A stretch of 64,000 bases of DNA from Lytechinus pictus (taxonomy: Eukaryota), in the NCBI RefSeq assembly GCF_037042905.1, contig NC_087246.1:61256001-61320000 (forward strand). The letters are read 5' to 3'. This document shows positions 3,089 through 30,405 of this stretch, in pieces; position 1 is the stretch's first letter; each line of letters opens with the position of its first letter. Under the pieces are notes generated by a model that saw only the letters and a program-made list of their open reading frames with translations, was not told where the DNA came from and did no database searches. Made by a program: the position numbers and the translations under genes.

Positions 3089-5722
3089 TTGTTTCAAATA
3101 AAAAGGGTCTAGGAACGGAAACTACCATACGTTAGTCACGTGACGTTGTACACAGAAATATGCCATGTTCTGCCTGCTCGATCTCAAAGTTTGGGAGAAA
3201 AATGAGATGTAACCATTATACCAGTCATAAAGTATTATACATCAAGCTGTAGGTAATCCATTTAGCATTGAGATGACAATCAATCTCGACCTTTCTGACC
3301 CTTAGGGATATTCCAGGGGGAAAACAAAGGTGCTGGTGTCTCGAAAATATGGGTGGTTTTCGACCGTTTGCCATAACAAGATTTGTGAACATGGACACTT
3401 TCAAATCAACAGCGAGACGTAAATAGTGACTTAATTGTAATAATATTTACATTAAATTAATGGAATTTGATAAAATTTTCACACTATTATCAATCTGGTG
3501 TGAGATTATTAATAGTTATAAAGATATATTCCGATTTCTGCAATATTACGTTCATGAAAACAACTGTTCCCTGTGTTGAAGCTGTGTGTGTGGACTTTCG
3601 GACACTCAAATGCACGCGACTAACCATTATGTTTTGCGCTGTGCGCTCGCATTATTTGATTTGCCAAGTAGGCCTACATATTGTCTTTGTTTATTCCATA
3701 AGATTCATTATATATCAATTATATAACAAACTAATTATTATCCCCCTTTTATGACAGTTTATCAAAAATTTCGTCTCGCGATTTGCGCTCGCAATAATTT
3801 TTACAAATATATCAACTCATGAACCCTATTCATGATTACAAAAGTTTTTCATGCCTCAATGTCAACAAATTTCACTCACTCATTAGGCTTATTAAATTAA
3901 TAAATATGATGATAAAATTTTCATGAATTCCTAATAACTAAATTGTCCCCTTTTCAGAAAGGAATATCGGCAAGTTTCATATCGCACTTAGGAAGAGGAA
4001 TATTTTTTTTTTTCATATGATTACAAAATGTCCTTTGGCCTAGAATGTCCAGGTCCTAGGTCAAAATAGTAATAAAAATATCAGCTCGCGCCCTCGCTCT
4101 CGCATAATTTATTAAGTGCTATCCACATCCACTTCATAATTCCACTACACAGTGCTTAAGATACTAGTAGTGCTTAAATTCACCCTTTTCATAACGGATC
4201 AAATTTTATCATATTTTCTGCTCGCGCTTCCCGCTCGCATTATTCATTTTCATGATAAAAAATGAAATGAATTCAGAATGCCCAGATTCTGTCTAAATCT
4301 AAAACGCGCGCACACATGTTTATTGAATACGCAGCTTGATCTTTATTCAAAACTTGCTAAAATTATCCAGTTTCAGATCAGAACATCAAAATTTTTATGC
4401 TTGCGCTTTGCGCTCGCATCATTAATGTAGGAAGATACCAAATTACCCATCCTTTTTCATGATTTACAAAACAAGAATAGGGTGTCCAATTTTTAGGTCT
4501 GAAATCTCATTTTTTTTCCGCTCGCGCTCCGTGCTCGCATCATTATTGTTCGGTTAGTTACCTATACCGTTATCGGTTACAAAAAGTGCTTAAAATGTCA
4601 ATTTTTTTTAGGTCGGAATGTCAAAAATTTTCAGCTCGCGCTTCGCGCTCGCATTATTTAATAATAGTTAAAATATGCATCGTCCTAATGGTTAACTGCA
4701 AAACGTTCTTAACAGGTCCCTTTTTGATCAAGCCAGAACCCATATTAAAAATTACTGCTCGCGCTTCGCGCTCGCAGTAATGATCTAGTTACATAAGTAT
4801 CCTGTTCAGGTTTACAAACTATCTAAATAGGGCTTATGAGATTATTACACTTATCTAAGAATGAAGCTAAGAAATGACTGTTAAGACATGGGCGTTTTGC
4901 CCCCCCCCCCCCATTTTTCACCACCAAGAAAAAAAAGAGAAAAGGAAAGGGATAAGAAAGGAACATAGGCCTATTTTTTTTTCCAAGTGTTATGTAAAAA
5001 ATGTCAAAATTTTTGCTCGCTCGCAACTTCTTATTCATTTTTGTTAAGCTCATTTCGCCACTGGGACAACCCCTTCAAAGAAACAAACAAAATTCAACTA
5101 TGAGCGGCCGATCGGGGAAAATATGGATGAAAAAAATTCGCCCCCCCCCCCCTATTGGCGGAAGCTGGATCCGCCCCTGGCTACGAAATCCTACGACACA
5201 CTCAGAACCCATTTCCCTGATCTTACGGAAACGCACTAGATTGAGATGTCTTGTAAAGTAGATTCTTTAGAGGATGCCCGACTGCTGCGCTGCATCGTTT
5301 TGTCTTTTTTGATGCCGATTAAGGTGAGATAATATTAGAATTGTTGAAAAAGATATTGCCCTTTTCAGTTTGCAGTGTGTGAGTGGATATTCCATGTGCA
5401 ATTCGCATTATTATTATGAAGATTTATTGAATTATAACCTCTCCTTCGTGTGTGTGGTTTGTTCTTGGTATTCACAGCGCAAACAGGCCCAGGCCAGGGA
5501 GCTCCGCCGCCAGGCTAGGGCCGACTCGTGGCCAAGCTCTGGTGCGACTTACCTCAACTTGATGTTCGTGCAGGCTCCACTCCACTTCAGTCACTACCGC
5601 TGCACTACGCTCCACCCACCCGAACCTCAAGGTGGTGAACTCATTTTGATAGTTTGAGTGACAAAGGTGGGGAAAAGTGCATAATTATAATTTATAGTGA
5701 AAAATATACGTCGAAACGGCAT

Positions 5723-6093
5723 TATAGTAAACTGACTATATGGATGTTAACCTAAATAAAGTAAGCTGGATTACCGAGAACCATATACTCACCTTAATCC
5801 TGGGTCAGTCCGTCTTAATCTTACAAAGGATGAAGACTTCGATGACTTGTAAGTATATAGAGCTTGTCGTAGAACTTGTAAGTAGACTTGTCGTAGAACC
5901 TGATGACTCGTGTGAACTTGAGGGACGTATACGTAGTAGACTGTAGTACTGTACTGATCGAGAGCTGAACGTGAGAATGCGTCTGATCTTGGGATCCTGA
6001 TTCTGCGTACGTATGGAGGGTTTCTGGGGGGCATGGTCGCACGCACGGTCGCGCGTATTGTAGCACTTCGCGCGGGCGACCAAGTTCCCCATA
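5723..6093 (-). repeat. 3' LTR (371 bp)
   Basis: Identical by eye to 17590-17960 (offset 11867). The ORF-track peptides in both copies are identical. Confidence 0.95.
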
Positions 6094-6101
6094 TTCCCCC
6101 C
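6094..6101 (-). promoter_or_regulatory. Polypurine tract
   Basis: GGGGGGAA on the minus strand directly abutting the 3' LTR. Confidence 0.8.
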
Positions 6102-6574
6102 AACCGTAAAAATAAAGGGGAGATTGATTATTAACTGTACTTTCCTAATCACTCATGTAGATATAAAGATAGGTCTGAGGAGTGGACAAAAAAGTAACAA
6201 TAAACCGGTACATGTAGTACCAGGAATAAAAACACTCGTCCTAGACCCCTGAAAGGAACTATTTACTTCCCAGTATCTCGGAAATATCACGAAAACATAT
6301 ACTAAGGAAATTTAGGTTTCTTTCCCTATACTCGTGGGCATTAAACAGACCCTCAAAAAACTTTATTGAACATATACATATATATGTATACGTATGTCTT
6401 TAGGTTACGAGCTACTAAGCATGTAGTTCATGTAGTTCATGTAGTTCATGCGTGAAAAGGACTATTTACACACAAAAAAAATATGGATGGCCCCAAATCT
6501 CAATCCCCAAACTTTGGAGGATGATAACCAAGTAATAAGCCTTGCTTGACCAGCAGACTTTAAAACTAAATTGA

Positions 6575-7214: not shown

Positions 7215-8507
7215 TTACCCTAACAGGCCATACAGTAGTTTTGCATTGTATGTGGCTTGGGCCATTATAGTGGCCAAGGGCTGCCCCCGCAGGTTGGCTA
7301 CCACCGCCCCCACATCACCCAGGCTTTCAGGTGAAGTCACCGTCATGTCCGGGCGAGGAGGGAGATGCGGAGCATCGGTCTCCAGAATTAGCCGATCCGC
7401 GGGGACGGCCCTAAGGCCTTGAATTTGTTCTGTTGTGAAGTACGCTGCCATCCCGGCAATACCGAAATAGCAATATGGAAAGGCAGCGATCCATTTCCCG
7501 GCTTGCAAAGCATCGCTGGAGAAGTTATGGATGTGTATCCTTTGGAGTGGGGAGCAGTGCTTTGCAAGAAGCCGGCGGGCCAAAGTGTGCGCCGCGTACG
7601 CGGTATTATTCTTCGAATCACCCCTTAGGTGAAGGATAAGGACCCTCCCTTGGGTGCCCTGACCAAGAAGTCGCAGAAAGAGCGCTTCCTGGTCAGGCCA
7701 CCACTGGGAGTTGACAGAAAAGTCAAAGCCCAGTTCGCTTACGCCTACAACCAAGGGGCTTTGAAGTAGGGCAACCAAACGCTGCCACTGATCTTCGGTG
7801 TACTGTGAGGCCTGTTTAGGGTGTATCCCTACTGCTAATCTCCAGCTCCCGTCCCTCTTGTTGTATGGGGGGCTGTGAGCCAGCACCCGGGAAAGAAAGC
7901 CGGGGTCCATAAAGAACTCTGGGTCACAGAAGTTCAGGACCCCTCCGACTATCTCTACCGGGTGCTTTGTCACCACGCTCTTCCCCTTTCTCTTACTGTA
8001 CCAACCACACCTGTCTGGGTGAAAATGGCTATCAAACCCTAGTAGAGGCGGGGGATGGGAGCTCGGAGCAGGGGCGGGGGCATCCATTAAAGAGAAATCT
8101 TCTCGGTTGAGGTAATTCAAGAGACCCCTCCCTCTCCCCTTACTATGGAAAGTACCGGGCGTGCCGGGTGTTATGGGACCCTTGCGGACCCTTGCGAACC
8201 CTCTCCCCCTCCCCATTCCTTTGGATGGCTTAACGCCCTTCATCATGACAGGGGCAGGACCGGGAGTTTCCTTTAGGGAATTAGGGGAATCCCTGGACCC
8301 TGCCCTTAACCGACTCCGTAATCGACGCAACTTACGGAGCCACGTACGTTTTTGTCTACTGCCAGGGGGCGGGATTGGGCCCATCCGTGCATCTATTTCT
8401 GCTTGCCAGGCAGCCTCTGGAGGGATAGCCTCTGGGGGGGTAGAGGGGGGCCGGGTGTCCATTTCCACCTCGAAGGTTGACTCGGCGTGGAGTTCTAGCT
8501 CATCCAT
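7215..8507 (-). CDS. Retrotransposon ORF3: TatD-family (TATDN2-like) metal-dependent nuclease with a ~155-aa basic/Pro-rich N-terminal extension, 430 aa
   Basis: TatD motifs in order: FDSHFH (DxHxH), NFCDP (TATDN2-like), VGIHP, SELGFD (GEIGLD-like, Glu retained), LILHLR, IHIHNF, LILETDAP. Intronless, lying between pol and the 3' LTR. Confidence 0.92.
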   Translation of the reverse strand: MDELELHAESTFEVEMDTRPPSTPPEAIPPEAAWQAEIDARMGPIPPPGSRQKRTWLRKLRRLRSRLRAGSRDSPNSLKETPGPAPVMMKGVKPSKGMGRGRGFARVRKGPITPGTPGTFHSKGRGRGLLNYLNREDFSLMDAPAPAPSSHPPPLLGFDSHFHPDRCGWYSKRKGKSVVTKHPVEIVGGVLNFCDPEFFMDPGFLSRVLAHSPPYNKRDGSWRLAVGIHPKQASQYTEDQWQRLVALLQSPLVVGVSELGFDFSVNSQWWPDQEALFLRLLGQGTQGRVLILHLRGDSKNNTAYAAHTLARRLLAKHCSPLQRIHIHNFSSDALQAGKWIAAFPYCYFGIAGMAAYFTTEQIQGLRAVPADRLILETDAPHLPPRPDMTVTSPESLGDVGAVVANLRGQPLATIMAQATYNAKLLYGLLG

Positions 8508-8530
8508 CTGAAAAGAGAAAAGGAAATGGG
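8508..8530 (-). promoter_or_regulatory. 3' splice acceptor immediately preceding the TatD ATG
   Basis: Minus strand reads pol stop TAA-CCCATTTCCTTTTCTCTTTTCAG|ATG. Confidence 0.75.
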
Positions 8531-11500
8531 TTACCCACAGCTACAAAAAGGACAAAAATACTTGTCAATAGACATTCCTTCCGCATGGGTAACACCAACA
8601 CATGCACCATGGAACCACTCATCGCACCCATCACATTGAATCATGAACGATCCATCGTCGGGGGTTCTACAGTAGCAATACCTTTCCTTCCTCCAGTCAG
8701 GGCCTGAGGGCTTGGCCTCGTCAAGGCACCTTTTGAGCTGGTCATGGTTTACAGTCAGGGCCTTGTTCCGATAGATCACCCGGTATACATAAGGGGTATA
8801 TCGCTTCACGATAATAGCCGGACCCTTCCAGGGAGATTGCAGCTTCTTGCATTTTCCCTTGGGGGTCGCCTTGGCGAGAAGGTATACTCGGTCCCCTTCT
8901 TTAAATTGCCGCAAGTATACCTTTATGTCGTAATCCCGCTTCAACCGTCGCTGTGTATTCCGGAGGGTGGCTCTCGCAGCATCGTGCGCCTCTCGGATGC
9001 TCTGGGATAACTGAGATGAATATTCATCCAGAGGTCGGTCAGAGACGGATGGGGGAAGTGGAAAAATCAGCTCCGCTGGTTGATTAGTTTCACGCCCCAG
9101 CATCAATTGATTGGGCGTGAATCCCGTACTACGGTTGATCGTGGAACGAATCGCTCCAGCGATCTGGGCGAGGTTGTGGTCCCAATGAGTCTGGGACTTC
9201 CCAATGTAGCACCTTACCGCATCCATTAAGGTTCGGTTGAAACGTTCAACCTGGCCGTTTGCGGAAGGTCGGTACGGGGTAGTCCTAGCCTTATGTATAT
9301 GGAGCAGTTTACAGATGTTCGTGAATAACCTGCTCTCAAAATTTCTGCCCTGATCAGTAAAAATCTGGAATGGATAGCCAAAGCGGCAAAAGAACTCGCT
9401 AATGGCTGCCTGAGCGGTTACTTCCGCTGTCTGAGAGGGCAGTGGGACACACTCAACCCACTTGGTGAACTGGTCCACCATCATCAAGATGTACACGTTA
9501 CCTCGTGAGGTTTTGGGTAAAGGACCCATGAAATCGAGGTGTACACGTTCCATCGGGGCCCCCGCATGATAAGTTATCATGGGGTGTTTCCCATACCTCA
9601 CGGCTTTCTTATTTTTATTACAGACGGCACATCTCCGAATATACTCTTGGATGTCGCCCGACATACCATACCAGTAGTATTTGGACCGAAGTTTACCTTT
9701 AGTACGGTTCACACCAGCATGAGCTGCTGAAGGAGGATCATGATTTAGCTTGATCACTTCAGTACGCAAAGACTTGGGCACTACAAGTAGGAGATTGTCA
9801 TCGCCTTTACGCCAAATGACACCATCCTTAAGCACAAACAGCTCTCGGTTGACCCATAGGAACTTTCCAGCGGGGTCCCACAGAAGAACAGTTCCCTCGT
9901 CTGGTTCCTCTTTATCGAGCAGCCATTTGCGCAAGGGGGTCAGTTGACCATCAGCCTCTTGTTCTTTCCGAAGAAAGTCCATTGAGGTGAGGTCGATACC
10001 AGACCCGGCATCATGGGTTACCCCGTTGACCCTAAAAGAGAATGGACCGTCGATTGGACCAATATCCAGGTGAGTGATAAAGAGGTCCTCCGATTCTCCG
10101 GGGTCAAGGGTAACTTCCGAAACTTTACTCCTTTGTGCCAATTGGATCACATTGTCCACAGCATCAGTGAAGTGTGCCCAGTTTGTGTGGGCCTTCAGAC
10201 AGTATGCACAACCACCACAGGGCAAACTCTTGGGGTCAATACCCAGACGGTAGTTCTCACATGTAAAGTCGCCGTCGGGTATACGAGACAATGCATCTGC
10301 ATTCTGATGTTTCTTGCCAGGGCGGTGTTCAACTGCCATGTCATATTGGCCCAGTTCTTCGAGCCACCGGGCAAGCTGCCCTTGAGGCTCCCTAAAGTTC
10401 ATTAACCATGTCAGACTCCCATGGTCCGTGCGAACTGTAAAAGGCTTTCCGAGGAGGTAATGCCTATACTGGCGGGTAAACCGTACCACTGCCAACAGCT
10501 CACGCCTGGTTACACAATAGCGTCGTTGTTCAGGGGTCAGGGAAAAACTGCCATATGCAATAGTTCGCTCTTGCCCCTGTTGGACTTGGGTTAAAACAGC
10601 CCCAATAGCTGTGCCAGACGCATCGGTATCCAGAATGAACGGATCCGTGGAGTTGGGTAGTGCGAGGATAGGGGCGGTGGTCATGAGCCTCTTGACTTCC
10701 TCAAAAGCCACTTGATGCTGGTCCTCCCAGCGGAAGTCATTGTTCCCAGTGAGGCCATAGAGTGGCCCTACAACCTGGGCATAGTCTTTAAGGAAGACAC
10801 GGTGATAATTTACAAGTCCGAGGAGCCGTTCCACCTCCTTTGTGGACTTAGGGGTGGGCCAGTCCACTACGGCTTGAACATGCTCTTCCTTAAGGTGGAG
10901 ACCATTCCCATCAACCTCTCTACCAAGAAACTCTACCCGACGTTGGAAGAAGGAACATTTCTTTGGCTTCAACTTAAGCTTAAAGTCCCTAAATCGTTCC
11001 AACACCTGTCTGATGTTAGTGACGTGATCAGAGAAAGAGGTGCCGAGCACTACAACATCATCCAAGAAGGCTAAAGCGATATCCCAGTTCAATCCCCTGA
11101 GGATGAGATTCATTGCTCGAGAGAACGTGGCTGGGGCATTACATAAGCCGAAGCCCATGCGAACAAACTCGTATAAACCATACTTGGTGATAAATGCTGT
11201 CTTTTCACGGTCTTCCGGCCTGAGATTGACTTGCCAATAGGCAGAATTTGCATCTAGTTTGGAGAACCATGAATTCTCTGCTAAGGTATCCAAACACTCT
11301 TCGATGCAAGGAAGCGGGTAGACATCTTTCTTCGTAACGTTGTTAAGTTTACGATAGTCTATACACCAACGGACGCTACCGTCCCGTTTTCGGATTAAGA
11401 CAGGGGCGGACGCCCATTCCGACATCGAAGGTTGGATCACCCCGGCGGACAGCATTTTGTTAAGACATGCTCGCTCCTCTTGAACAAAGTTCATGGGTGT

Positions 11501-12883
11501 ACGCCTCATCTTTTGCTTGATGGGCGTAGCTTCGCCTGTGTCGATTGAATGGGTAATGGCTGTGAAATTACCCAAGTCGAATTCATCCCGGGCAAAGACA
11601 CCCTCAAATTCTAGCAACAAGCCCTTTAATATTCCTTGCTGTTCAGGAATTAAGTGTTCCGAAGATCGTTTCCAAAGATCTTCCAAATGGGTGGGGATTC
11701 TGGCATCCCCAGTCAAGTCAACCTGGCTGACACTTGGAATAGGATTGTCAAAGTCGGGGGGTTCTCTAGAACCTACGCGAGAAGCCTGTCCAAGGTGTTG
11801 ACCTTTATCCCAATGGATGGAAACATCAGTAGCATTCACAGCATATAACTGTATAGAGCTACTCCCAGAATGCAATGTGCGGGGAACCAATCCTATAAGG
11901 GCAACATCCGGCTCTACCATAAACTGGTCAAACGTGCAAGAAGAATCAAGTTCGCATTGTACTCGTTTGACTGACATTGGGGGGATGGTCACAGAATTTG
12001 AAACGAAAACCTGAGAGGTATCAGTGTCTTCACCACAAGTCATTGTAATGCACTCGCCCTGAAAGATTAACAAGGAATCCGGTATATTGATGAATGCACT
12101 GTGCTTCTTGAGGAGATCAGCTCCAAGCAGCATATCATCGTCTATCGGGGCAACATAGACGCATTCACTAAACGTCTGGCCACCTAGAGTCATATCAACC
12201 GGTCCTACAATTATTCCAGTCATACTCATATTTCTTCCAGCTGTATTTAGGACGACTGACCTAATAACTGGAGGAGCGGGGCGTAGTGCATGGTAGATTT
12301 TATCAGACATTATAGTCACCTCTGCAGCAGTATCGATTACGGCACGCATCAATTGGTTACCGACCAATATATTTATGCTATAAGTAGATGATGACTTTAT
12401 CCGGCAGACTACAACGTCCGAGGCCTGTTCGAGGTCCTTCGGGATCCAGCTATCTAATTGCGGATTCTCTTCAGGGGGTGGCCAGGGGGGTACCAACCAG
12501 GGGCTGGGCTCCAATGGAGGCCTAGGCGTATCAATCACCTGGCTGATGGGGGGTGGAGAGGAGAGTTCCTTGACACTCGGAACTTTCCCTGACCCTTCAG
12601 TGATACCAATACCGTCCTGACCGCCATCTCTCAGTTCGGATTCTTTAACAATCAAATCAGGAGAGGGAACACCCAGTTCCTTACTTCCTCTGGGAAGAGA
12701 GTCTTCGCTATCCAACGACCTGTTAGCCTCAAGTACTACCAAGGATATATCTGCTTCTTGCTCCTCTTGAGAGAGCGAATCCTCTAAAAGTACTTTGGCA
12801 TTTTCGGATTCCAAATTAGAATTGGGGTCCGCTTTTAGTGGGATCGGGGTCGGACCTCCTCCTCCGATCCCGAATCGTTTCCC
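8531..12883 (-). CDS. pol: Pol polyprotein (aspartic protease, RT, RNase H, integrase, C-terminal PHD finger), probably made as Gag-Pol by -1 frameshift
   Basis: IDTAA (protease). WCIDYRKLN, FGLCNAPATF and FLDD (RT). TDAS, RELLAV, TDH and NADALSR (RNase H). H..H..CAVC, LDFMGP, TDQG and QVERFN (integrase), followed by a GPY/F-like WKGP. The pol frame is open from the slippery site at 12883; the ORF-track start at 12814 is a TTG. Confidence 0.95.
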   Translation of the reverse strand, partial: GKRFGIGGGGPTPIPLKADPNSNLESENAKVLLEDSLSQEEQEADISLVVLEANRSLDSEDSLPRGSKELGVPSPDLIVKESELRDGGQDGIGITEGSGKVPSVKELSSPPPISQVIDTPRPPLEPSPWLVPPWPPPEENPQLDSWIPKDLEQASDVVVCRIKSSSTYSINILVGNQLMRAVIDTAAEVTIMSDKIYHALRPAPPVIRSVVLNTAGRNMSMTGIIVGPVDMTLGGQTFSECVYVAPIDDDMLLGADLLKKHSAFINIPDSLLIFQGECITMTCGEDTDTSQVFVSNSVTIPPMSVKRVQCELDSSCTFDQFMVEPDVALIGLVPRTLHSGSSSIQLYAVNATDVSIHWDKGQHLGQASRVGSREPPDFDNPIPSVSQVDLTGDARIPTHLEDLWKRSSEHLIPEQQGILKGLLLEFEGVFARDEFDLGNFTAITHSIDTGEATPIKQKMRRTPMNFVQEERACLNKMLSAGVIQPSMSEWASAPVLIRKRDGSVRWCIDYRKLNNVTKKDVYPLPCIEECLDTLAENSWFSKLDANSAYWQVNLRPEDREKTAFITKYGLYEFVRMGFGLCNAPATFSRAMNLILRGLNWDIALAFLDDVVVLGTSFSDHVTNIRQVLERFRDFKLKLKPKKCSFFQRRVEFLGREVDGNGLHLKEEHVQAVVDWPTPKSTKEVERLLGLVNYHRVFLKDYAQVVGPLYGLTGNNDFRWEDQHQVAFEEVKRLMTTAPILALPNSTDPFILDTDASGTAIGAVLTQVQQGQERTIAYGSFSLTPEQRRYCVTRRELLAVVRFTRQYRHYLLGKPFTVRTDHGSLTWLMNFREPQGQLARWLEELGQYDMAVEHRPGKKHQNADALSRIPDGDFTCENYRLGIDPKSLPCGGCAYCLKAHTNWAHFTDAVDNVIQLAQRSKVSEVTLDPGESEDLFITHLDIGPIDGPFSFRVNGVTHDAGSGIDLTSMDFLRKEQEADGQLTPLRKWLLDKEEPDEGTVLLWDPAGKFLWVNRELFVLKDGVIWRKGDDNLLLVVPKSLRTEVIKLNHDPPSAAHAGVNRTKGKLRSKYYWYGMSGDIQEYIRRCAVCNKNKKAVRYGKHPMITYHAGAPMERVHLDFMGPLPKTSRGNVYILMMVDQFTKWVECVPLPSQTAEVTAQAAISEFFCRFGYPFQIFTDQGRNFESRLFTNICKLLHIHKARTTPYRPSANGQVERFNRTLMDAVRCYIGKSQTHWDHNLAQIAGAIRSTINRSTGFTPNQLMLGRETNQPAELIFPLPPSVSDRPLDEYSSQLSQSIREAHDAARATLRNTQRRLKRDYDIKVYLRQFKEGDRVYLLAKATPKGKCKKLQSPWKGPAIIVKRYTPYVYRVIYRNKALTVNHDQLKRCLDEAKPSGPDWRKERYCYCRTPDDGSFMIQCDGCDEWFHGACVGVTHAEGMSIDKYFCPFCSCG
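12826..12883 (-). promoter_or_regulatory. -1 programmed ribosomal frameshift signal (slippery heptamer plus H-type pseudoknot)
   Basis: G GGA AAC in the gag frame (12877-12883), a 5-nt spacer, stem 1 GGGATCGG/CCGATCCC and stem 2 GGTCCG/CGGACC. Pol is in the -1 frame. Confidence 0.85.
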
Positions 12884-14994
12884 AAATCTTCACAGACAAA
12901 GGAAACGCTCGGTCGGGGGCCTCGTTCTGGACACTCGTTCTTGAAGTGTCCAGACTTTCCACAGTGGAAGCAGGCACCAATACGACCCGGTGACATATTC
13001 CCTCGGGCAGGAGATGCTCTGCCTCTACCACGAGGAGAAACTACTAACTTTTTTACACTCTCAGCTAGGCTTTGAACAGTAGCCGGCAAAGACCCAAGTG
13101 CTTCCAATTGCTTTAGTGCAGAGTCCATCTTCCCTTCTAAAGCGGAAACCCTTCGCTCTAAAACGGTATACGCTGGGGAAGTAGGGGGCGCACTCACCTG
13201 CCTTGCGGTTGGTTCAAGGGGGGTCTTTTCAGACAAGGAGACATGTTTAACCTCCCTGCGCGGTTTCCCATAAATAGCTCGGTGTGAGTGTTGATACCAT
13301 TTAACAAGATCAACAGCCTCTTCCACGGTCTTAGGTCTGGAATTGAGTGCATGTTGCCCAGCTTCCTTATCTGCGGAGCCCTGGCAGAAACGCATCACTA
13401 CCTGCTGCTGCACATATGCCTCGGGCAAATTAGGAAAAGCCTGAGAGGCTAAGGTAAGCAACCGAGCAGCCCACTTGGTGACATTCTCGTCAGGGGCCTG
13501 TCTTGCATAAGAGAAATTCATTTGCGATACCTCAGGCATTTCTTTAAGTGTGAACCTCTTTTCCATCCTATTCACCATAATGTTATATGGCATATCGGGC
13601 TCTCGCTCAAGAAGCGTGGCTAAATAGGAGCTAGCCTCCCCATCTAACGTCCAACATAAGTAATTACGCGATTGTTTGGCGTCCCACCCATTCTCACTGG
13701 CGAATAATTTAAACTTCGCAATGAAGGCTTGCCAGCTGCCCGTACCGTTAAAGGTTATGGACTTTGGCACCGAAACCAGTCGGGGTCTGTCCCCTTCCCC
13801 TGTACTGGTACTTAAGGATCTTCGTACCGGTGGTGGGTTGTGGGACTCGAAATCATGCTCTTGGGATTGGGGGGCCTGCGTTTCAGGGGCACGGTTGATG
13901 GCAAATAGTGATTGCAAAACACGCGATGATAAATCAACTGCTACGTCTTCATTTGACTGTCTTGCATCCCGCCTATTGTGGTCTTGTGTTCTTCGGGGGG
14001 ATGATGACCTACGAGGGCCATGGTCAGGCGAGTGGGAACGGTTAGAGTTTGACCTATGCCAATCATCACGACCTCTACACGGACTGTGATTACCCCTATA
14101 ATATCGTGGGGGAGAATCATAACGGTCATTTCGATATCGGCGAGGGGAATAGCGATACCTGTTCCTATAGTAGTCATATCGATCCCTACTGCGATCATAA
14201 CGATCCCTACTCCGATCATAACGATCCCTACTATGATCATATCGATCCCGCCTGTGACCTCTAGGTGACCCTTGTCGGCGCCCACCATAATCCCGAAAAG
14301 GAGAATCATATCGACTATCCCGGCGGTTTGTACGTGGTGATCCACGGCGGCTGTTGTGGCGACCAGATGTGGGTGACCGAGATATAGGTGACCCGTGGCT
14401 ACCCCTTGGTGGGTTAGCATGATCCCTAGATGACCTAGGACTGGCCTGGTCACTTGAGGGTGACTTCATAGGGGAAGAAAGCCCATCATCCTCACCTTCC
14501 CTCGGTGGGGGTGTGCGTTTTCGCGGCGAAGAGAAAACCACATGCTTCCGTGAGGGCGAATTGCCTCTAGCTACCTTATCTCTGCGTGAGCTGGCAGCCC
14601 CTGACTCTCCACTCTCTCTCCCCATTACTATTTTAAGATGTCCTGGCAACGAATCTTGAGGATAGGATTCAAAAGGGTAGGGAGAGGGGGATTGGGTTGG
14701 CTGCTCATCGCCCACCTGTGCTGCTACATCACCTGCCGCAGCAGGGCCTACTATCACTCTTTCCTCAATAGAATCGGTAGAATTTGTGCCAGATTCTAAA
14801 ACAGCATAAGGGGCAAAATCAAAATACCCTGCAATCTCAGAGGCATTACGTATGTGCGGAATATCTAAGAAAGTTTCCATCGTAATATCATTAGCCTCTC
14901 GGAGGACCAATATTCGCTCGGCCAAAGTACTACCAATTCCTGGGACCTTCAATAGCTCCTCTGGCTCACAACAATTAATTTGAATCTTGGACAT
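12835..14994 (-). CDS. gag: Gag, 719 aa: N-terminal helix-hairpin-helix, RS/RD low-complexity tract, capsid-like region, coiled coil, CCHC zinc knuckle
   Basis: INCCEPEELLKVPGIGSTLAERIL (HhH); FNGTGSWQAFIAKF...NGW capsid-like region; CFHCGKSGHFKNEC knuckle. Located upstream of pol. Confidence 0.9.
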   Translation of the reverse strand: MSKIQINCCEPEELLKVPGIGSTLAERILVLREANDITMETFLDIPHIRNASEIAGYFDFAPYAVLESGTNSTDSIEERVIVGPAAAGDVAAQVGDEQPTQSPSPYPFESYPQDSLPGHLKIVMGRESGESGAASSRRDKVARGNSPSRKHVVFSSPRKRTPPPREGEDDGLSSPMKSPSSDQASPRSSRDHANPPRGSHGSPISRSPTSGRHNSRRGSPRTNRRDSRYDSPFRDYGGRRQGSPRGHRRDRYDHSRDRYDRSRDRYDRSRDRYDYYRNRYRYSPRRYRNDRYDSPPRYYRGNHSPCRGRDDWHRSNSNRSHSPDHGPRRSSSPRRTQDHNRRDARQSNEDVAVDLSSRVLQSLFAINRAPETQAPQSQEHDFESHNPPPVRRSLSTSTGEGDRPRLVSVPKSITFNGTGSWQAFIAKFKLFASENGWDAKQSRNYLCWTLDGEASSYLATLLEREPDMPYNIMVNRMEKRFTLKEMPEVSQMNFSYARQAPDENVTKWAARLLTLASQAFPNLPEAYVQQQVVMRFCQGSADKEAGQHALNSRPKTVEEAVDLVKWYQHSHRAIYGKPRREVKHVSLSEKTPLEPTARQVSAPPTSPAYTVLERRVSALEGKMDSALKQLEALGSLPATVQSLAESVKKLVVSPRGRGRASPARGNMSPGRIGACFHCGKSGHFKNECPERGPRPSVSFVCEDLGNDSGSEEEVRPRSH

Positions 14995-17576
14995 GATTCG
15001 ATGAAGGGTGACTAAATTTTGAAAGTTCTATCTTACGCTAACAAGCACCTAAGTACTGAGTAAAGCTCCTTCGAAAATCAGAATTATCACTGATCAGTGA
15101 TCACCACCAAATAGGATTGATCACTTTCAATCATCAATCTTACCAGAGAGCTAAACAACAACAACTAAAAACTAAGTTTGTTTGGAAAACCTAATTATTA
15201 AAATTTATCAAAGGTTTAAAGCTCTGATATGGCCAATATGAGGCCTATATTATTTAAGTACAAATGTGTAAATATACCGAAAATAAAACACTAGCCTCTA
15301 CTCCGATGCTGAGCTAACCAGGTGCACCCAGCACCTATATGTGTACTAAGTAGAAAATGCCTCCACTGCTGACACAAAAGTTTAAATTATCTTCGGGCGT
15401 ATATATATATACTTTGCTTATCCCTTATCTATAAGCTTTGTATACTGAAAACACCCTTCAGATAATTAAAAACTAAAAATGACCTTGCTTGTCGATGACC
15501 AAAGAAAATGACCAAATACTGATATAAAATGGTCCAATCCTTGACCCAATACTAATATGAACTAAGAATACCGAAATAAATTACAAGCACCCTATGCTCT
15601 TATAATTAGATGGAAGTTCTAAATATTGTATCTCAAAGTCAAATTTGTTTGGAATAATTCTTTCCTATATAAACTCGAATTACAGATTCAAAACTTTCTA
15701 TCTCAGAACCGAATGAAAATTTTATTTTCTTTTTTATTCAAAGCAAAATTTATATAAGTATTTCTTTTCTCGAAATGACAAGAAGTTCAAGTATTCACTA
15801 AGTAAGTCAAATTTCTGTTCCAAAGAACTCCTAAATGTAAACGTACAAACGATCAAGCAAAATCCTAACTCTAGATCAGCTTAAACAATCCACAAAGGCC
15901 CTATTAATAATATCGTCGTACTTTTAATTGACAGCAGGTGCGACTTTGCAACAAACTACCGGTGGCCAGAGATTGTTATAACGGTCAAAATATATAATCT
16001 TTAACTCCAATAAACTATTAAGTTTTTTTCTCTAAATAAATTCCCCACGGGTGTACGGAAGTCTGAATAGATTAAGTACGAGAGAGTTTTTGGAACTACA
16101 CTAACGCAAGTAGCGTCGGATTATAATGAGACGGACCGTATTATAAAAATACAAAGTCAAAAGTTAACTTTCAGTCCTAAAATAAAATTAGCACAATAAT
16201 TGTCCAAAATACGAGCGTCACCAATGTACGTGACGGGAATCAATGAGTATATTCACTAAATCCGAAGACAAGTTAGGCCAATATAATATAATTGGTCGAG
16301 TTCCCAGACTTATGTTCAAGCTCCAAAAAATACTCTAAGTATTCACCGACTGCCTAAGTAATTAATTAATATATATACCATCCACTAAAATTTGTAGCTT
16401 AATGCCACTCTAAATATAAGCATTGGTGGCTTGCAACGGCATATAAAATATATCAATCACTCCTTATTTTTATTTATTTATTTTTTATTTTATTTATTTC
16501 TTTTTTTTTTTTTTTTGGAGATGATATCTTAATACCGAAATGAAATCAAATTGATCATTAAATAAAGTCCACAAGAGAAACCCGACGTACTAAAGTCGTA
16601 TGAGGGTAACTCCGTTTTAGCCAGATAACACTAGGATAATTTCATACAAAAAAGTCACGGTATAATTCAGACTTCACGCACCTATAAAACGGCAATAGTA
16701 GAAACCTCCCTATATGCAAAACGGCAATCTAAACGGCGCCGAATAAATCCGTAAAACGGCAACCTAACTGGCGCCAAAAAATGATTACTGCAAGACGGGA
16801 AAATCTGTATAAGAAATGGTCAAAATTCGTTTTCACACGTAATATCAATACACGACCTCACGAATCAAGAACGGCATATACAGAATCATCATAACTCAAC
16901 TACTCAACGTACGTAGATTCCTCGTCGTCTGCTACAGCTAACGGGGGGAAAGTCAGGTTAAGCAATACGATCTTTCACCAATCACGCAATCATTAAATCA
17001 CCAACAGCCAAATTCAACAATAAATATATATCTCAGTTACGTACAATTCCTAAATTTAATTATCCTACATCAAAATTCAAATCCTAATTTAATTAAATCC
17101 TAACAGGGAAAGAGGGTACATACAAATTTATCACCAGAACCACACCCCAAGCAACTCTCAGGCAAGGCATACATTCAGCCCTAACACACAATAGAATGCG
17201 GGGAGCGGCGAACAATAGAAAACGTTTAACGCTATTTGCATAAATGGCGTGCCCTACGTGGCGTCCTGCCACACCCAAAATTTAAACCGGGTTAAGGGGA
17301 TAGTGTAAGGGTTTAAAACCTACGCAAAAACGCTGAGAATAAGCCCTAAAACACTGCTATTATTTGTTTAAGATAACTATAATACAGATCTATATCGCTG
17401 TAGGACGGCGGATTGAATCAAAAGTTTAAACAATTTATAAAGAGTGCGATTTACTTTGCCGCCCTACGGTACACTTTTCCCTACTTTTAAGCACTTAAAA
17501 CGATGTCTAGCCAATTTAGTTTTCTGCGCCGCTTGTTTTACTGCATTTACAAAACTAGCGCAGAGTCGTGTTCATA

Positions 17577-17586
17577 CGCAGCGCCA
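17577..17586 (-). promoter_or_regulatory. Primer-binding site, tRNA-Ser-like
   Basis: TGGCGCTGCG, 3 nt downstream of the 5' LTR. It is complementary to a tRNA 3' end ...CGCAGCG-CCA of the kind seen in animal tRNA-Ser; the isotype was assigned from memory. Confidence 0.75.
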
Positions 17587-17589
17587 ATA

Positions 17590-17960
17590 TATAGTAAACT
17601 GACTATATGGATGTTAACCTAAATAAAGTAAGCTGGATTACCGAGAACCATATACTCACCTTAATCCTGGGTCAGTCCGTCTTAATCTTACAAAGGATGA
17701 AGACTTCGATGACTTGTAAGTATATAGAGCTTGTCGTAGAACTTGTAAGTAGACTTGTCGTAGAACCTGATGACTCGTGTGAACTTGAGGGACGTATACG
17801 TAGTAGACTGTAGTACTGTACTGATCGAGAGCTGAACGTGAGAATGCGTCTGATCTTGGGATCCTGATTCTGCGTACGTATGGAGGGTTTCTGGGGGGCA
17901 TGGTCGCACGCACGGTCGCGCGTATTGTAGCACTTCGCGCGGGCGACCAAGTTCCCCATA
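17590..17960 (-). repeat. 5' LTR (371 bp), containing consensus splice donor AAG|GTGAGT at 17662-17654
   Basis: Direct repeat of 5723-6093, followed by the PBS on the minus strand. Confidence 0.95.
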
Positions 17961-18012
17961 GCATTAAAAAAAAAGCTTAAAAACTTTGCATGCGCATGCG
18001 CGAGGGTCCGGG

Positions 18013-18963
18013 AAGCCTGGAGGCGTCTGGGGAGTGAAAGTAATATACTGTACGTATGGTCACTCCCCTAACGCCTGGCATTGTGATGTATAGACTCCTA
18101 CGTACCGAGGGAAAAGGCAACTATAAAAATGCGCCAAACTGCTAGTTATGTTTAGAATCTGAGGTCACGACTGCTGTACATTGGTAACAATATTGGTTGG
18201 CAACGTTTGGCAAAAAATGGATGGTAATGGTTACAAAATGACGAATAAATTATATGAAGTAATAAAAGTAGAAGAGAGTTTACTTACACTTGTTGACATC
18301 GCCATCTTTGATCCTTTGTTAAAGCAACCTAGTTACGTGACGCGTATAGAGGGCGGCAAAATCATGAGCGGTGCTAGATTAAAAAGTGCTAAAATGTCCT
18401 GCTTCAACTGAACTATAAATACGTGGAAGTCGTGTACACCCTAGCAAAACATCGCCGGCGAACTCGATAAGTCACGTGACCGCCGCCATTTTGCTAGGTC
18501 AATTGTTCGAGAACGCGCCGTAGAAGGCAAGATGCAATATGTTTTCTCTATGTATTTCTAGTTCAGTGGTTGAAGCGGGACATTTTAGCACTTTTTAATC
18601 TAGCACCGCTCATGATTTTGCCGCCCTCTATACGCGTCACGTAACTAGGTTGCATTAACAAAGGATCAAAGATGGCGATGTCAACAAGTGTAAGTAAACT
18701 CTCTTCTACTTTTATTACTTTATATAATTTATTCGTCATTTTGTAACCATTACCATCCATTTTTGCCAAACGTTGCCAACCAATATTGTTACCCATGTAC
18801 AGCAGTTGTGACCTCAGATTCTAAACATAACTAGCAGTTTGGCGCATTTTCATAGTTGCCTTTTCCCTCGGTACGTAGGAGTCTATACATCACAATGCCA
18901 GGCGTTAGGGGAGTGACCATACGTACAGTATATTACTTTCACTCCCCAGACGCCTCCAGGCTA
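18013..18963. mobile_element. Young ~950-bp palindromic non-autonomous DNA transposon (about 410-bp near-identical arms; Academ-like xAGCCTGG...CCAGGCTA ends)
   Basis: 18014-18427 is the near-perfect reverse complement of 18546-18962. Flanked by the direct repeat GGTCCGGG (18005-18012, 18964-18971). Superfamily assignment is tentative. Confidence 0.8.
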
Positions 18964-25600: not shown

Positions 25601-27199
25601 CTATGATGAATGTAATTATGGTCTCCTTGTCAATTTCTATGGACTGTGCATTTGCATATTTACATGTTTCTTCTTTGCATTACGTAGTAATATATAAAAC
25701 TGGTCCAACACAATGTTATTCCCTTCCCAATTAAATAGACATTGCAAGGACAGGACCACTTCAATGTCTGTCTTCTTGATTGTTTGGCTTTTGTTCCCGG
25801 GTTTTTTTTTTCAGTGCCATCACATGCCCTTGTGGGAGTCTGAAGAAATATTGATATAAATGAATAGAAAATCAACTGGAAAAACCAAATACATTTGTTC
25901 TATGTACATCTAGTCACGTTCATAATTTGGAAGGGTAGTAGCACTCCATGATATTTAGCTGCAATTTTTTCCACTTGTGTTTTTTCTGCGATTTTGTGTA
26001 TTTTCACAAGTGTTTTTTACTACAATTTATTGTTTTCACAATGTTTTTTTTTTTTTGCTGCCACATGTGTATTTTGTGTTTTCACAAGCGTTTTTTGCTG
26101 CGATTGTGTGTTTCCACAAGTGATTTTTTGTTTAAGGTACATGTACATCATACTACATGTAAGAACCCCATTGGAAATACATGAATCCATCTGTAGCTTT
26201 TATAGGCTCCCCTGTCACACAGGTACATGTACATACTTTGATATTAAAGCCATATTTAAAGTGCCATGTTATTCACACATTTTCATTGGATGCGAGTTTT
26301 GCTTATTTTGACAATGACATGCACAACACTCACTGTGCTATGTAAATAAGAGAGTCGATGATGTCACTCACTATTTCTTTCTACGAATTATACAATATTT
26401 GAAGAAAAGAATTAAATTTGCACAAATTTGACAATAAGGAGATTCTTCATCAAATCATCACAACAATTTATAATCCCACTTATTAAATGATGAATCAGTT
26501 TTGTTTATAACTTTATTAAAACATCATAATGAGGAAAAATAGATATTTCATATTTCATTCGACAAAAATAGAAAATAAATAGTGAGTGGGTGCCTGGAAT
26601 GGGTGACGTCAATCGGTTCCCTCTGCATCAACCATATGTGAAAATAAGCAAAATTTCAAAGTATCATTACTTTATGGGTCTCATCCCCAGCAAGTCGGCA
26701 AGCCCCCGAATTTCGCTGGTTAGACGCTGCAGCCGCTTTTGCTGCTTTCTGTCGGTCTAATTTGCTGGTGTTATTCCTCATGCAATTTTGATGAAATTTT
26801 CAGCATTACTGTATGTTTAAATCTACTCTTTGTTGGTTCTGACATGCCCTTTGAATTGAATGCTCAAAGCCTCTCAGGAAATTAAAGTACATGTTCATGT
26901 AATTTTGAACAATTATCTCAACACAGCAGCAAGTGTAACATCTCTGAATAGAAGACAGTGATGAATTCTTCTTTCCATCTGTCTGCCTCATCATAATTCC
27001 ATACATCTAATACAGTGGCATAGTGGCCATACCTTGTAACCATCTTCCCATTGCTGGGTCAGTCCCCTTCTCCTTACATGTAGTATTGTAGGCTATGTAG
27101 AATACAATTTTTTTTATGTATCCACTAGGTCTAATACCAGTTGGTCTGATTTTCAGATAATTTCACATTGATCACAGAAGCTACCCACTTGATCACAGA

Positions 27200-27856
27200 A
27201 AATACCCAGTATTTTCTGATTGGAAATTATACCCAGATCAGAATATACCCAGTATTTTCTAATTGGAAATTATACCCAGATCAGAATATTCCCAGTATTT
27301 TCTGATTGGAAATTATACCCAGATCAGAATATTCCCAGTATTTTCTGATTGGAAATTATACCCAGATCAGAAAATATCCAGTATTTTCTAATTGGAAATT
27401 ATACCCAGATCAGAATAAACCCAGTATTTTCTAATTGGAAATTATACCCAGATCAGAAAATATCCAGTATTTTCTGAGTTGAAATCATACCCAGATCAGA
27501 AAATATCCGGTATTTTTTTATTGGAAATTATACCCAGATCAGAAAATACTGGGTATTTTCTGTGATCAAGTGGGTAGCTTCTGTGATCAATGTGAAATTA
27601 TCTGAAAATCAGACCAACTGGTATTAGACTATCAGAATATTCCCAGTATTTTCTTATTGGAAATTATACCCAGATCAGAATATTCCCAGTATTTTCTGAT
27701 TGGAAATTATACCCAGATCAGAAAATATCCAGTATTTTCTGATTGGAAATCATACCCAGATCAGAAAATATCTGGTATTTTTTTATTGGAAATTATACCC
27801 AGATCAGAAAATACCCAGTATTTTCTGATTGGAAATTATACCCAGATCAGAAATAC
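27200..27856. repeat. 43-bp minisatellite (about 13 units) interrupted by an inverted duplication
   Basis: Unit CCAGTATTTTCTGATTGGAAATTATACCCAGATCAGAATATTC with exact 43-bp periodicity (27206, 27249, 27292 ... 27507; 27643 ... 27815). Confidence 0.92.
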
Positions 27857-29006
27857 CTGGTGTTTTGTCAGCTTACTAATAAACTAAATAAATAAACTAA
27901 ATTTATTGTTGTATATCTGAAATAATTGTGTGTTACATGTAAATTAGTAGAAATTTTTCAAAATTGTAAGTTGTAATGTAACAACTTTGCATAACACTGT
28001 AGGAAGAACGTGAACAAAATTACATTTACCAGACTACCCAAGGGTGAAAAAAATGAACATAAAGATACAAATCTGTTTTAACTTGCAAAGAATTTTGGAA
28101 GGGTTACATCAACATGTCTCCACAATAAAAATATCTTGACAAAAATGATTTATGCAAAATTTGTATATATCTTTAGAGTGGCAATTAGAAGCTCAAATAT
28201 GGAACCATCAAAGCGTAAAGGTCTTTGTTCTAAGATAGGCACACCCCCCCACCCCCATCTCCATTTGCCCCGACTGCAACCCTGAGCACCAATATTGAAA
28301 TAGCTGTATTAGTCATTAGTTCTGCCTTAGTTCAACCACCTATACAGGTGTAAATATAATACAGTCTGTGATCATAGATCATGTGGCAGAGGGGCGTACA
28401 GTACTTGCTTGGGAATCAAATAACATAAAAACATAATTGTTGGTGAAGCAGATGCTTTTCTCTTCAGGCTGGCATATTACTGACCTACTAGTGGATTTTT
28501 TGGAAGGGGGCTGCAGCCAGCCAGCCACCTGTAAAAATTTCACCAAAGTATCTATATCTTTACATCATAGTTTTCATTGGATTTCCCTTAGAATTACAAG
28601 ATGACTGTCATTGTATTCTTTTATTTATTTATTCATTATCTTTGACAAAAATTCCATAATTTATTTTAGCTGCTCACTTTGCTGGCTTTCCAATTTAAAA
28701 AAAAGTTTTTTTTTAATCTGAATTCAACCACATCCAGATTTAGCCACATTATGACCTTGCATCAAAGTCCATGATTTGGACATCCCTGTTACAAATTAGA
28801 CCGACTCTTGTGATATGAATAACCCTCTTTCAATTATCCATTGTAGAGGAAAAGATTTTGGACTTTGTTTCTCTTTTCTCCATTAGCACTTTAATATCTA
28901 GGAATGGAATTCCAGATCTTTCTTTCATCTTGCCCTCTTTGTTTCATTCTTATATACCACAGAGCTATGTGAAGTGTCAAAGGTCCCTGAGTCACCAGAC
29001 ATCAAG

Positions 29007-29702
29007 ATGTCAGACAGTGACGGAGACGTTGTGGTTGCCGAGGAGGCAACCCCTGAGAGCCTTGTTGATCAATCCAATTCTCATCACTCAAACAACCCCA
29101 ATACCAGTACTACCCAATCCTGCCAGTCCATTCAAGAAAATGGCGCCCTCTCAGTTGAGAGAACAGACAATCAGGGTTCCTCTTCAGCTGCTGCTGATGT
29201 CACATCAATCAGTCACAGTGCTGAAGTCAATAAACAAAGTACTACTCACGTGTCTACAGGGACAGTTAGGAATATCCATGACTCAAATGGTGATGGTACC
29301 CTAGCGCAGGGAGCTGGATCTTCTCCTTGTCAAAGCAGTACCATCAGTTCTACACCTTGTGCAACCATCTGTGCCGAAAACAGTACCGCACCTTCTGCAG
29401 GGTTAGTCGCTTCTGCAGCAGGGAGACCTTATAGTACTTCTACACCTCTGGCAGCTGGAGGCCAGAGGTATCCGAGCCAGCTCACAAGGAATTATAATCA
29501 GGATAGGGAACATTTTGAACGAGAAGAAGAGGAGGAGAATTGGGAGGAGGTTGCTGAAGGGATGGGTAACGTTGCAGGATCCATCCTGGGCTACTCGCCT
29601 CTGGTCTTTGAAAACAATGAGGAAGGAGGGGATGAACAATTAGATGAACTCTATGTGCCTATCAGTGGATACGAGGTCATGGAACAAAGGGCGAAGTTCA
29701 CT
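29007..29702 (+). CDS. SNX16: Sorting nexin 16, first identified coding exon (acceptor at 28962/28963)
   Basis: Ser/Thr-rich N-terminus ending in PISGYEVMEQRAKFT, which matches the SNX16 PX start GYEVMEERAKFT. Donor ACT|GTGAGT. Confidence 0.88.
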
Positions 29703-30405
29703 GTGAGTATTAAATTCAATTTATGCAGAGACATCAGTAGGAACTCCTACTTTTTCCCAAATAATTTTGGCCATTAAAAACATATTTTTATGTATTTACA
29801 TGTATATACCCGGTATGTACACACATATGCCAAGCCCACTTTCATAGCAGTCTGTAGTGATGTCTCAGAATTTCAATTTCTTGCTGTGTTATAATGTATG
29901 ACTAGATTCATTTACATGCGCCCCCCCCCCCATCTACCGGTATACAGTATCTCCCCTTCCATTCTTTCTATTCTCGCTCTCTATCCCTCTCTCCCTGATC
30001 TTGTATCCCTGTTGTGAAGTGAAGCATTGTATTTCCATCTGCCTCCTATTAGTATGGTGATTGAAGGGAAATGGACTATCCATTCCTCTTCCCCCCCCCC
30101 CCCCCCATGTCTCTTAATTCTCAATTGCTATAGCAGGCAGGGGGATATGTTAGTCTAAGCATCTACTTGACCAAAGGTTCACAAGACTGAATGTGTGTGA
30201 GTCTGATTATTGCCAATTCCTATCACTTTTTTTGCTCTTGAAAACTTCCAAGATATGTTAGCTTTCTAAAGATTGAAAATACTATAGTAAAGTGTGCTGC
30301 ACTCTTGAATTGGAAGGACAGACATGGTCTTTATCGTCTCTTAAATCCTCAGTTAACTTTGCAACGACCATTTAAGTTAGAGCCAGAGTAAATTATAGGC
30401 CCAAT

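Follow-up and report, generated by a model that had tools for sequence, protein, structure and literature searches.

The errantiviruses, whose env is spliced to an upstream exon according to two reports (PMC12992720; bioRxiv 10.1101/2023.08.03.551782), and the Juno and Vesta elements of bdelloid rotifers, whose third open reading frame (ORF3) codes for a DEDDy 3'-5' exonuclease or a GDSL esterase, are the closest described systems to the element analyzed here. For Juno and Vesta, the description gives spliced messages as typical and the function of ORF3 as untested (PMC5408684), and rotifer elements with a nuclease ORF3 are also named in PMC6338049. Foamy viruses have their major splice donor within the long terminal repeat (LTR), where it also controls the choice of poly(A) site (PMC3694450), and a survey detected no env-carrying Ty3/Gypsy element in echinoderms (PMC13524379). 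The locus studied here lies in a 64,000-nt stretch of the sea urchin Lytechinus pictus (RefSeq assembly GCF_037042905.1, contig NC_087246.1, positions 61,256,001 to 61,320,000; hereafter the window), the minus strand of which hosts a complete and young Ty3/Gypsy (Metaviridae) LTR retrotransposon with gag, pol and, after pol, an ORF3 for a protein of the TatD fold. We propose, with a probability of about 0.8, that ORF3 is a conserved TatD gene likely expressed from a subgenomic RNA, which would join a splice donor at 17660, inside the 5' LTR, to an acceptor at 8508/8507.

With the env-F mRNAs of the Drosophila gypsy, ZAM, idefix and springer subclades, the element shares a third sense ORF after pol and, probably, a splice from an upstream exon, and with ZAM and Beagle the addition of a short upstream-exon peptide, here predicted in one family. 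It differs from errantiviral env in that ORF3 has a TatD fold without fusion-glycoprotein features and in that the donor lies within the LTR, upstream of the primer binding site (PBS). Like Juno and Vesta, it carries a non-env ORF3, predicted to be enzymatic, with intact catalytic residues, but the fold is a TIM-barrel TatD and not DnaQ-like, and whereas the ORF3s of Juno and Vesta are family-specific and were gained repeatedly, TatD is common to all nine families described below, tracks the reverse transcriptase (RT) and has relatives in three phyla; a PHD finger at the integrase end and a helix-hairpin-helix in Gag further set these families apart from Juno and Vesta. No DEDDy, GDSL esterase or dUTPase Pfam family was found in ORF3 or pol. 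The predicted donor inside the LTR, present at both ends of the element, is shared with the foamy viruses, an unrelated lineage. The HxH motif and the fold are those of class II TatDs (TATDN2, TATDN3, YcfH and YjjV), and the long low-complexity N-terminus recalls TATDN2; ORF3 differs from the class II enzymes in being a single-exon domain inside a retrotransposon. A literature search over titles and the beginnings of abstracts, with subscription journals, Repbase and preprint supplements beyond its reach, found no retrotransposon with a TatD ORF3 and an LTR-internal donor. Spliced third ORFs have been described before, as have nuclease ORF3s of another fold; within the reach of that search, the pairing of a TatD ORF3 with a donor inside the LTR is new.

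A conserved, predicted splice acceptor ahead of ORF3

The pol frame ends with TAA at 8533-8531 and is separated from the ORF3 ATG at 8507-8505 by a 23-nt spacer (8530-8508, CCCATTTCCTTTTCTCTTTTCAG). The original prediction, made from the letters of the window, took this entire spacer for a splice acceptor, and the sequence bears this out, a pyrimidine tract running to a CAG directly before the ATG. The accompanying suggestion of a branch point over the pol stop holds only in part: GGTAAC is present at 8535-8530, with an A 24 nt before the acceptor, but it is a loose match, and loose matches at scattered distances in seven of nine families amount to no evidence.

Searching the genome with ORF3 gave 96 matches, which include five full ORF3s that are near-identical and many others with 33-52% identity. 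Twenty loci were taken with 20 kb each; four are close copies of the window family, eight represent other families, in which LTRs, gag and pol-PHD are accompanied by a TatD ORF3 of 430-1,245 aa, and the remainder are a second copy of one family and rearranged or pol-less copies. Counts over nine families exclude the near-identical, pol-less and rearranged copies (C18:16.28M, C1:26.77M, C5:48.12M, C17:19.04M). Acceptors were ranked by a score of our own, which combines the pyrimidines in 20 nt, a YAG and the lack of a close upstream AG. By this pyrimidine-tract and YAG score, the sole AG of the spacer ranks first among the 737 AGs between the LTRs (p 0.0014). The AG before ORF3 is likewise first of 627-1,129 internal AGs in seven of the nine families and among the top three in the other two; the chance of so high a site within the spacer is 0.001-0.02 in eight families and 0.17 in one, with a Fisher's combined p of 2e-10 over nine families that is nominal, the families being related. 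As a control, no AG of the 5' or 3' untranslated regions (UTRs; 86-358 per family) attains the score of the acceptor in any of the nine families, and the acceptor expected in related families is thus found there, top-ranked in seven of nine and above every UTR AG in all nine. Each spacer tract has a CAG at its end, while spacer lengths and sequences are otherwise wholly different among families and the ORF3 N-termini cannot be aligned; the acceptor persists nonetheless. Four of ten held-out loci have a pol end and rank this acceptor first of 520-715 AGs, though they come from families already counted and carry no independent weight, and the other six are without a pol end adjoining ORF3. A candidate acceptor before gag is inconsistent across families (rank 3-104).

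Predicted splice donors in the LTR

The predicted donor, AAG/GTGAGT, is where it had been placed, with the exon ending at 17660 and the intron starting at 17659, which leaves 70 nt to the end of the 5' LTR (17590), and the joined leader contains the in-frame stop said to lie upstream of the ORF3 ATG (Table 1). The proposed intron, 17659 to 8508, is 9,152 nt long. Its donor scores highest within the LTR (p 0.003 versus 5,000 shuffles of the last 170 nt) and is, together with a site in gag that is weighed below, one of the two top scorers among the 569 GTs upstream of the acceptor. It lies upstream of the PBS, a point absent from the original prediction, and the spliced RNA would therefore be without a PBS. 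The best LTR donor is found 30-105 nt from the LTR end in seven of nine families and exceeds shuffles at p < 0.05 in five. Among eight LTR relatives at 65-78% identity, the nine donor positions are retained 9/9 in three and 8/9 in four, the changes in the latter being GTGAGT to GTAAGT (three) or upstream of the GT (one).

A hairpin over the donor, predicted by local folding in five of nine families (paired 0.76-1.0), was rejected, the fold being no better than shuffles (z +1.19) and none of 20 pairs covarying. An acceptor-like pyrimidine tract with an AG lies about 40-85 nt past the LTR donor, still within the LTR, in families C16:7.18M, C17:14.92M and C5:50.25M and in the window (17659-17619), and could form a competing mini-intron.

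Annotated gene models

The junction is drawn in a RefSeq model of a sister family, C5:50.25M. The LTR sequence immediately ahead of GTGAGT encodes the first eight residues of this protein (XP_063955238.1; P0042), the codon for residue 9 is divided by the intron, and 748 of 748 further residues are those of ORF3 from the predicted acceptor. The intron of 7,607 nt (GT..AG) removes the PBS, gag and pol, and the model bypasses stronger donors in gag and pol and passes over a contiguous in-frame ATG 40 nt upstream of the acceptor. The start for this family, an ATG 26 nt before the LTR donor and in frame after the splice, had been derived before the protein was obtained; it must come from the LTR exon, because two out-of-frame ATGs follow the acceptor.

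In two other families (P0045 and P0081/P0082, one of them a single protein under two accessions), the annotated start is the first ATG past the acceptor and not the in-frame ATGs 35 and 19 codons upstream, which sit within the pyrimidine tract; a longer version from the upstream ATG, looked up for one family, is absent from the protein collection. The RefSeq start of the window family is the ATG after the AG and does not discriminate between the readings. In a further model, P0064 ('TATDN2'), a Pro/Gln-rich exon of 47 codons that lies 8 kb upstream is joined to a pol-less ORF3, and the acceptor used has the same position as in the elements.

Two pol-less and LTR-less ORF3 copies, C15:31.24M (L041-L042) and C18:26.15M (L043-L044), have 763 and 775 open codons, adjoin the window family on the TatD tree and both have the upstream exon of P0064. 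They look like exonization by way of the element's acceptor.

ORF3 as a predicted TatD nuclease under purifying selection

The TatD domain of ORF3 is recognized by Pfam (PF01026, E 3.9e-29), and the predicted structure (predicted local distance difference test score 89.5) has TatD-family structures or TatD-like metalloproteins as the first 15 hits listed by Foldseek, with 13-24% identity to solved TatDs in fold alignments. The site residues are retained in the homologs as follows: H161 in 115/115, H163 in 112/115, E258 in 133/138, H293 in 134/138, H325 in 120/139 and D378 in 130/136, counted over aligned stretches from 138 homologs with gaps excluded where the denominator is below 139. The HxH and the other four residues are also kept across the families. 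From alignment to 1J6O and 4PE8, we take E258, H293, H325 and D378 to be probable ligands of the metal site. On these grounds ORF3 is probably an active metal-dependent nuclease of the HxH class. The HxH motif defines the class II TatDs (PMC10085689).

The ratio of replacement to synonymous substitution rates (dN/dS) of the TatD domain was measurable for seven pairs, four further pairs being saturated. Five of the seven have ratios of 0.07 (79 synonymous versus 25 replacement changes), 0.10, 0.11, 0.18 and 0.18, and codon comparison of this kind shows ORF3 to be under purifying selection. Pfam finds TatD as the sole domain of ORF3 and no env domain, and no hydrophobic segment is present in any of the nine families (maximum Kyte-Doolittle value over 19 residues, 1.0-1.5). 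ORF3 is thus not an env, given that it has no membrane segment.

A C-x-GC...H...H-L-P motif without a Pfam match occurs in the ORF3 N-termini of P0042, P0081 and 20 of the 138 homologs, and is possibly a zinc finger; it is absent from the short ORF3 of the window. The pol-less ORF3 at C4:20.31M (L067), of 1,130 aa, has lost three of the six site residues, has a broken tandem copy downstream and has a counterpart in L. variegatus that is 90% identical and named mucin-17-like. It is a candidate, from its sequence, for a domesticated, inactive TatD.

Phylogeny and distribution

The RT and TatD trees share the main deep split of the families (support 95/99 for RT and 100/98 for TatD), which fits descent of ORF3 with the element; both trees hold members of the clade, with six short, presumably bacterial rows as the TatD outgroup. 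The pol-less copies nest within the element clade on the TatD tree and therefore derive from elements.

Named homologs come from the sea urchins Lytechinus, Strongylocentrotus and Diadema, the bivalves Dreissena, Mya and Pinctada (clusters of 31, 13 and 7 members) and the brachiopod Lingula. One Dreissena model combines TatD with a PNMA-like Gag, RT and RNase H, its RT being 66% identical to that of the window, and the element context is established for this model and the present genome. A profile search gave 634 clusters (50% identity) at E up to 1e-30, and no bona fide host TATDN1, TATDN2 or TATDN3 appeared among the homolog search results. Metagenome and viral scans gave a single element-like locus (L106, 2.7 kb, with no pol end) among 87, the other loci being apparently cellular TatDs, and an atlas search returned generic TatD clusters only. 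Three ORF3-like proteins (P0074, P0104, P0257) are filed under a bacterial metagenome-assembled genome (Sedimenticola sp.) on contigs of 4-12 kb, which are probably host-animal DNA in the bin.

Weighing the spliced message against alternatives

The expectation that ORF3 is expressed from a spliced subgenomic RNA in the manner of env is supported by the conserved acceptor, the LTR donors and the RefSeq models, and the likeness to env is limited to expression. The view of ORF3 as a dedicated gene is supported by purifying selection and by the matching RT and TatD trees. We regard splicing into 8507 as very likely and the LTR donor as likely to be the main partner of this acceptor.

A number of observations weigh against this interpretation. 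The acceptor score was devised only after the spacers had been seen, and the antisense spacer is high-scoring too in two of the nine families. LTR donors are no better than shuffles in four of nine families (p 0.15-0.51), and the one with the RefSeq splice is among these four. One diverged 3' LTR retains the donor at 7/9 positions but not its GT, and conservation extends to the sequence on either side of the donor (35-38 of about 49 nt), so that the donor is no lone peak. The RefSeq models are computed and their RNA support is not visible, and other models have doubtful introns, P0005 skipping about 350 nt of open ORF3 and P0082 leaving the frame after residue 546. C5:50.25M has the two out-of-frame ATGs past the acceptor noted above, and leaders differ between families. 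Two of the measurable pairs have dN/dS values of 0.41 and 0.47. No junction of 17660 to 8507 was seen in three raw RNA runs, of which about 6% each was sampled; these yielded 10, 4 and 12 reads over 11.9 kb, and the 26 reads in all are too shallow to decide. Neither was this joint present in 53 contigs of a set (X1) that is RNA only by guess, and coverage by these contigs is as even over the putative intron as over ORF3, with a depth of 2.5-17.6 in 29 of 30 bins. The read and contig data neither show nor exclude the splice.

No processed DNA copy of a spliced RNA turned up when 12 genomic matches at the start of ORF3 and 23 LTR matches were inspected; three joins of LTR to ORF3 (C17:19.04M, C14:9.03M, C15:27.48M) were rejected as internal deletions at or after the LTR end and not at the donor, and the LTR search for the sister family gave mostly an unrelated 100-bp repeat.

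A further point against an LTR-joined message, absent from the original prediction, is the equally strong donor CAG/GTGAGT in gag (13198/13197), which could partner the ORF3 acceptor and give a Gag fusion. This site equals the LTR donor in score, is in phase 0 and in frame with ORF3, is present in all four near-identical copies checked, and has a precedent in idefix. However, a strong in-frame gag donor is found in only two of nine families and at unrelated places (codon 599 of 719 and codon 170 of 581). In one family, moreover, a stop separates the acceptor from the ATG, and the sister-family RefSeq model uses the LTR donor in spite of stronger donors in gag and pol. As the main route a gag splice is improbable; it may produce a minor isoform beside the LTR splice. 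Translation from an unspliced message, whether ribosomes pass the pol stop by leaky scanning or termination-reinitiation or the RNA arises at an internal promoter, would need no upstream exon, accords with the failure to see a junction and is easily pictured in the window, where the ATG is only 23 nt past the pol stop; the pyrimidine tract would then be a by-product of a T-rich spacer or a translation element. Yet the spacers of other families measure 60-430 nt and contain extra ATGs, every tract has a terminal CAG that outranks all UTR AGs, and it is at these AGs that the RefSeq models begin or have their splice. Reinitiation would also be expected to yield very little protein, because pol itself is reached only via a frameshift. 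We consider unspliced expression still less probable than the gag splice.

The least probable explanation, for which we see very little room, is that ORF3 is passive cargo, a captured exon of a host TATDN gene whose acceptor is the unused relic of a host intron. Several copies are indeed named 'putative deoxyribonuclease TATDN2' in RefSeq and pol-less copies exist in the genome, where no donor gene was identified. Against capture stand purifying selection and the retention of active-site residues over families only 33-47% identical, the persistence of the acceptor where spacers and N-termini cannot be aligned, and the placement of the pol-less copies inside the element clade, by which they are element-derived.

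Proposed mechanism and implications

In the LTR-spliced model that we favor, transcription would start in the LTR upstream of the donor at 17660. The whole RNA would serve as genome and as gag/gag-pol message, with Gag-Pol made by a -1 shift at GGGAAAC, and the spliced RNA would be devoid of the PBS, gag and pol, all within the 9,152 nt removed. Because the PBS is lost, the spliced RNA would be a message only, not copyable by tRNA priming. Scanning from its short leader would reach the ATG past the AG and yield a protein of 430 aa that is free and not fused to Pol.

The RNA strand of R-loops is degraded by TATDN2 (PMC10711561), and TATDN1 and TATDN3 are 3' exonucleases and apurinic/apyrimidinic endonucleases (PMC10085689). 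By analogy with these enzymes, ORF3 may trim single-stranded ends or RNA:DNA hybrids that form where the element is inserted or while it replicates. We put this processing of the element's own nucleic acids forward tentatively, at somewhat less than even odds, and weakly favor it, on the strength of the same analogy, over other roles and over counter-defence against host silencing or sensing, which seems doubtful. In the counter-defence version, the free protein would clear R-loops or hybrids that trigger silencing, or destroy guide or sensor nucleic acids, in the way of the accessory genes of complex retroviruses, and the ready-made acceptor would let hosts exonize ORF3. A TatD has reportedly been co-opted in bacterial anti-phage defence (PMC13434339). 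A broader scenario, conceivable though rather unlikely as a whole, is that of an old, undescribed Gypsy lineage spread over echinoderms, bivalves and brachiopods among the marine invertebrates, with TatD in the env slot, an LTR-spliced message without a PBS, an accessory gene for counter-defence and an exonizable acceptor.

The env slot after pol can house enzymes, but only a few scattered examples are known. In the present elements, a single predicted nuclease family seems to have been fixed throughout a lineage, along with conserved splice signals that belong to it. Annotation is affected as well: urchin and bivalve genes labelled 'TATDN2-like' are in many cases likely to be ORF3s of retrotransposons, and two of the pol-less copies look domesticated. 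A single junction offers a precise and cheap test, and the purified enzyme could show what an accessory nuclease is worth to a retrotransposon.

Architecture of the element and minor observations

The features of the element are listed in Table 1. It has LTRs, a target-site duplication, a PBS and a polypurine tract, as LTR retrotransposons do, and gag followed by pol with protease, RT, RNase H and integrase in the order of Ty3/Gypsy elements. The LTRs (17960-17590 and 6093-5723) end in TAT..ATA instead of TG..CA, and the duplicated target site is 4 bp.

Table 1. Features of the L. pictus Ty3/Gypsy element, in window coordinates
Feature	Position	Strand	Detail or basis
5' LTR, termini TAT...ATA	17590..17960	-	371 bp, 100% identity to 3' LTR
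3' LTR, same donor sequence inside	5723..6093	-	LTR comparison
Target-site duplication ATGC, 5' side	17961..17964	-	3' copy 5719-5722
TATA-like CTATATA, ~60 nt before donor	17721..17727	-	sequence; promoter role putative
TGA in putative leader exon, in frame with ORF3 ATG after proposed splice	17672..17674	-	
Splice donor AAG/GTGAGT within LTR, upstream of PBS, exon end 17660	17654..17662	-	
PBS TGGCGCTGCG, likely tRNA-Ser	17577..17586	-	sister-family copy with long tRNA copy, anticodon UGA
gag, 719 aa: N-terminal helix-hairpin-helix, PNMA-like part, CCHC knuckle	12835..14994	-	
Second strong donor CAG/GTGAGT, following gag codon 599; phase 0, ORF3 frame kept	13192..13200	-	
Slippery heptamer GGGAAAC in 55-nt gag/pol -1 overlap	12877..12883	-	frameshift predicted
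pol frame, 1,452 codons: protease, RT, RNase H, integrase, C-terminal PHD finger	8531..12889	-	
Predicted splice acceptor: pol stop within branch-like GGTAAC, then pyrimidine tract and CAG	8508..8535	-	
ORF3, 430 aa: low-complexity basic N-terminus (~150 aa), TatD domain aa 158-427	7215..8507	-	
Polypurine tract ahead of 3' LTR	6094..6105	-	

A slippery heptamer is found in the gag/pol overlaps of five of the nine families. At the copy C5:48.12M (L054:2061-2133), which has identical LTRs, the PBS extends for about 60 nt as tRNA and then continues in mid-pol; this stretch has the anticodon UGA and matches the Rfam tRNA model with E 0.0004, just under the gathering score. The primer is likely tRNA-Ser, because the PBS of this copy runs on into the tRNA, as in an overshoot of reverse transcription into the primer. 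The helix-hairpin-helix at the Gag start (14994-14890; Pfam HHH_3, E 5.6e-6, just under the cut-off) is common to most families and makes up, with the integrase-end PHD finger and TatD, three nucleic-acid or chromatin add-ons of the clade. The 5' UTR (14995-17589) is 2.6 kb long, AT-rich and contains 17 ATGs, that of other families being 1.2-6.3 kb.

Elsewhere in the window, an element of about 950 bp with long, near-perfect terminal inverted repeats (18014-18962) lies 53 bp from the 5' LTR, a 43-bp tandem array with an internal inversion occupies 27108-27939, and a 256-codon ORF without a Pfam match at 29007-29777 is possibly the first exon of a host gene.

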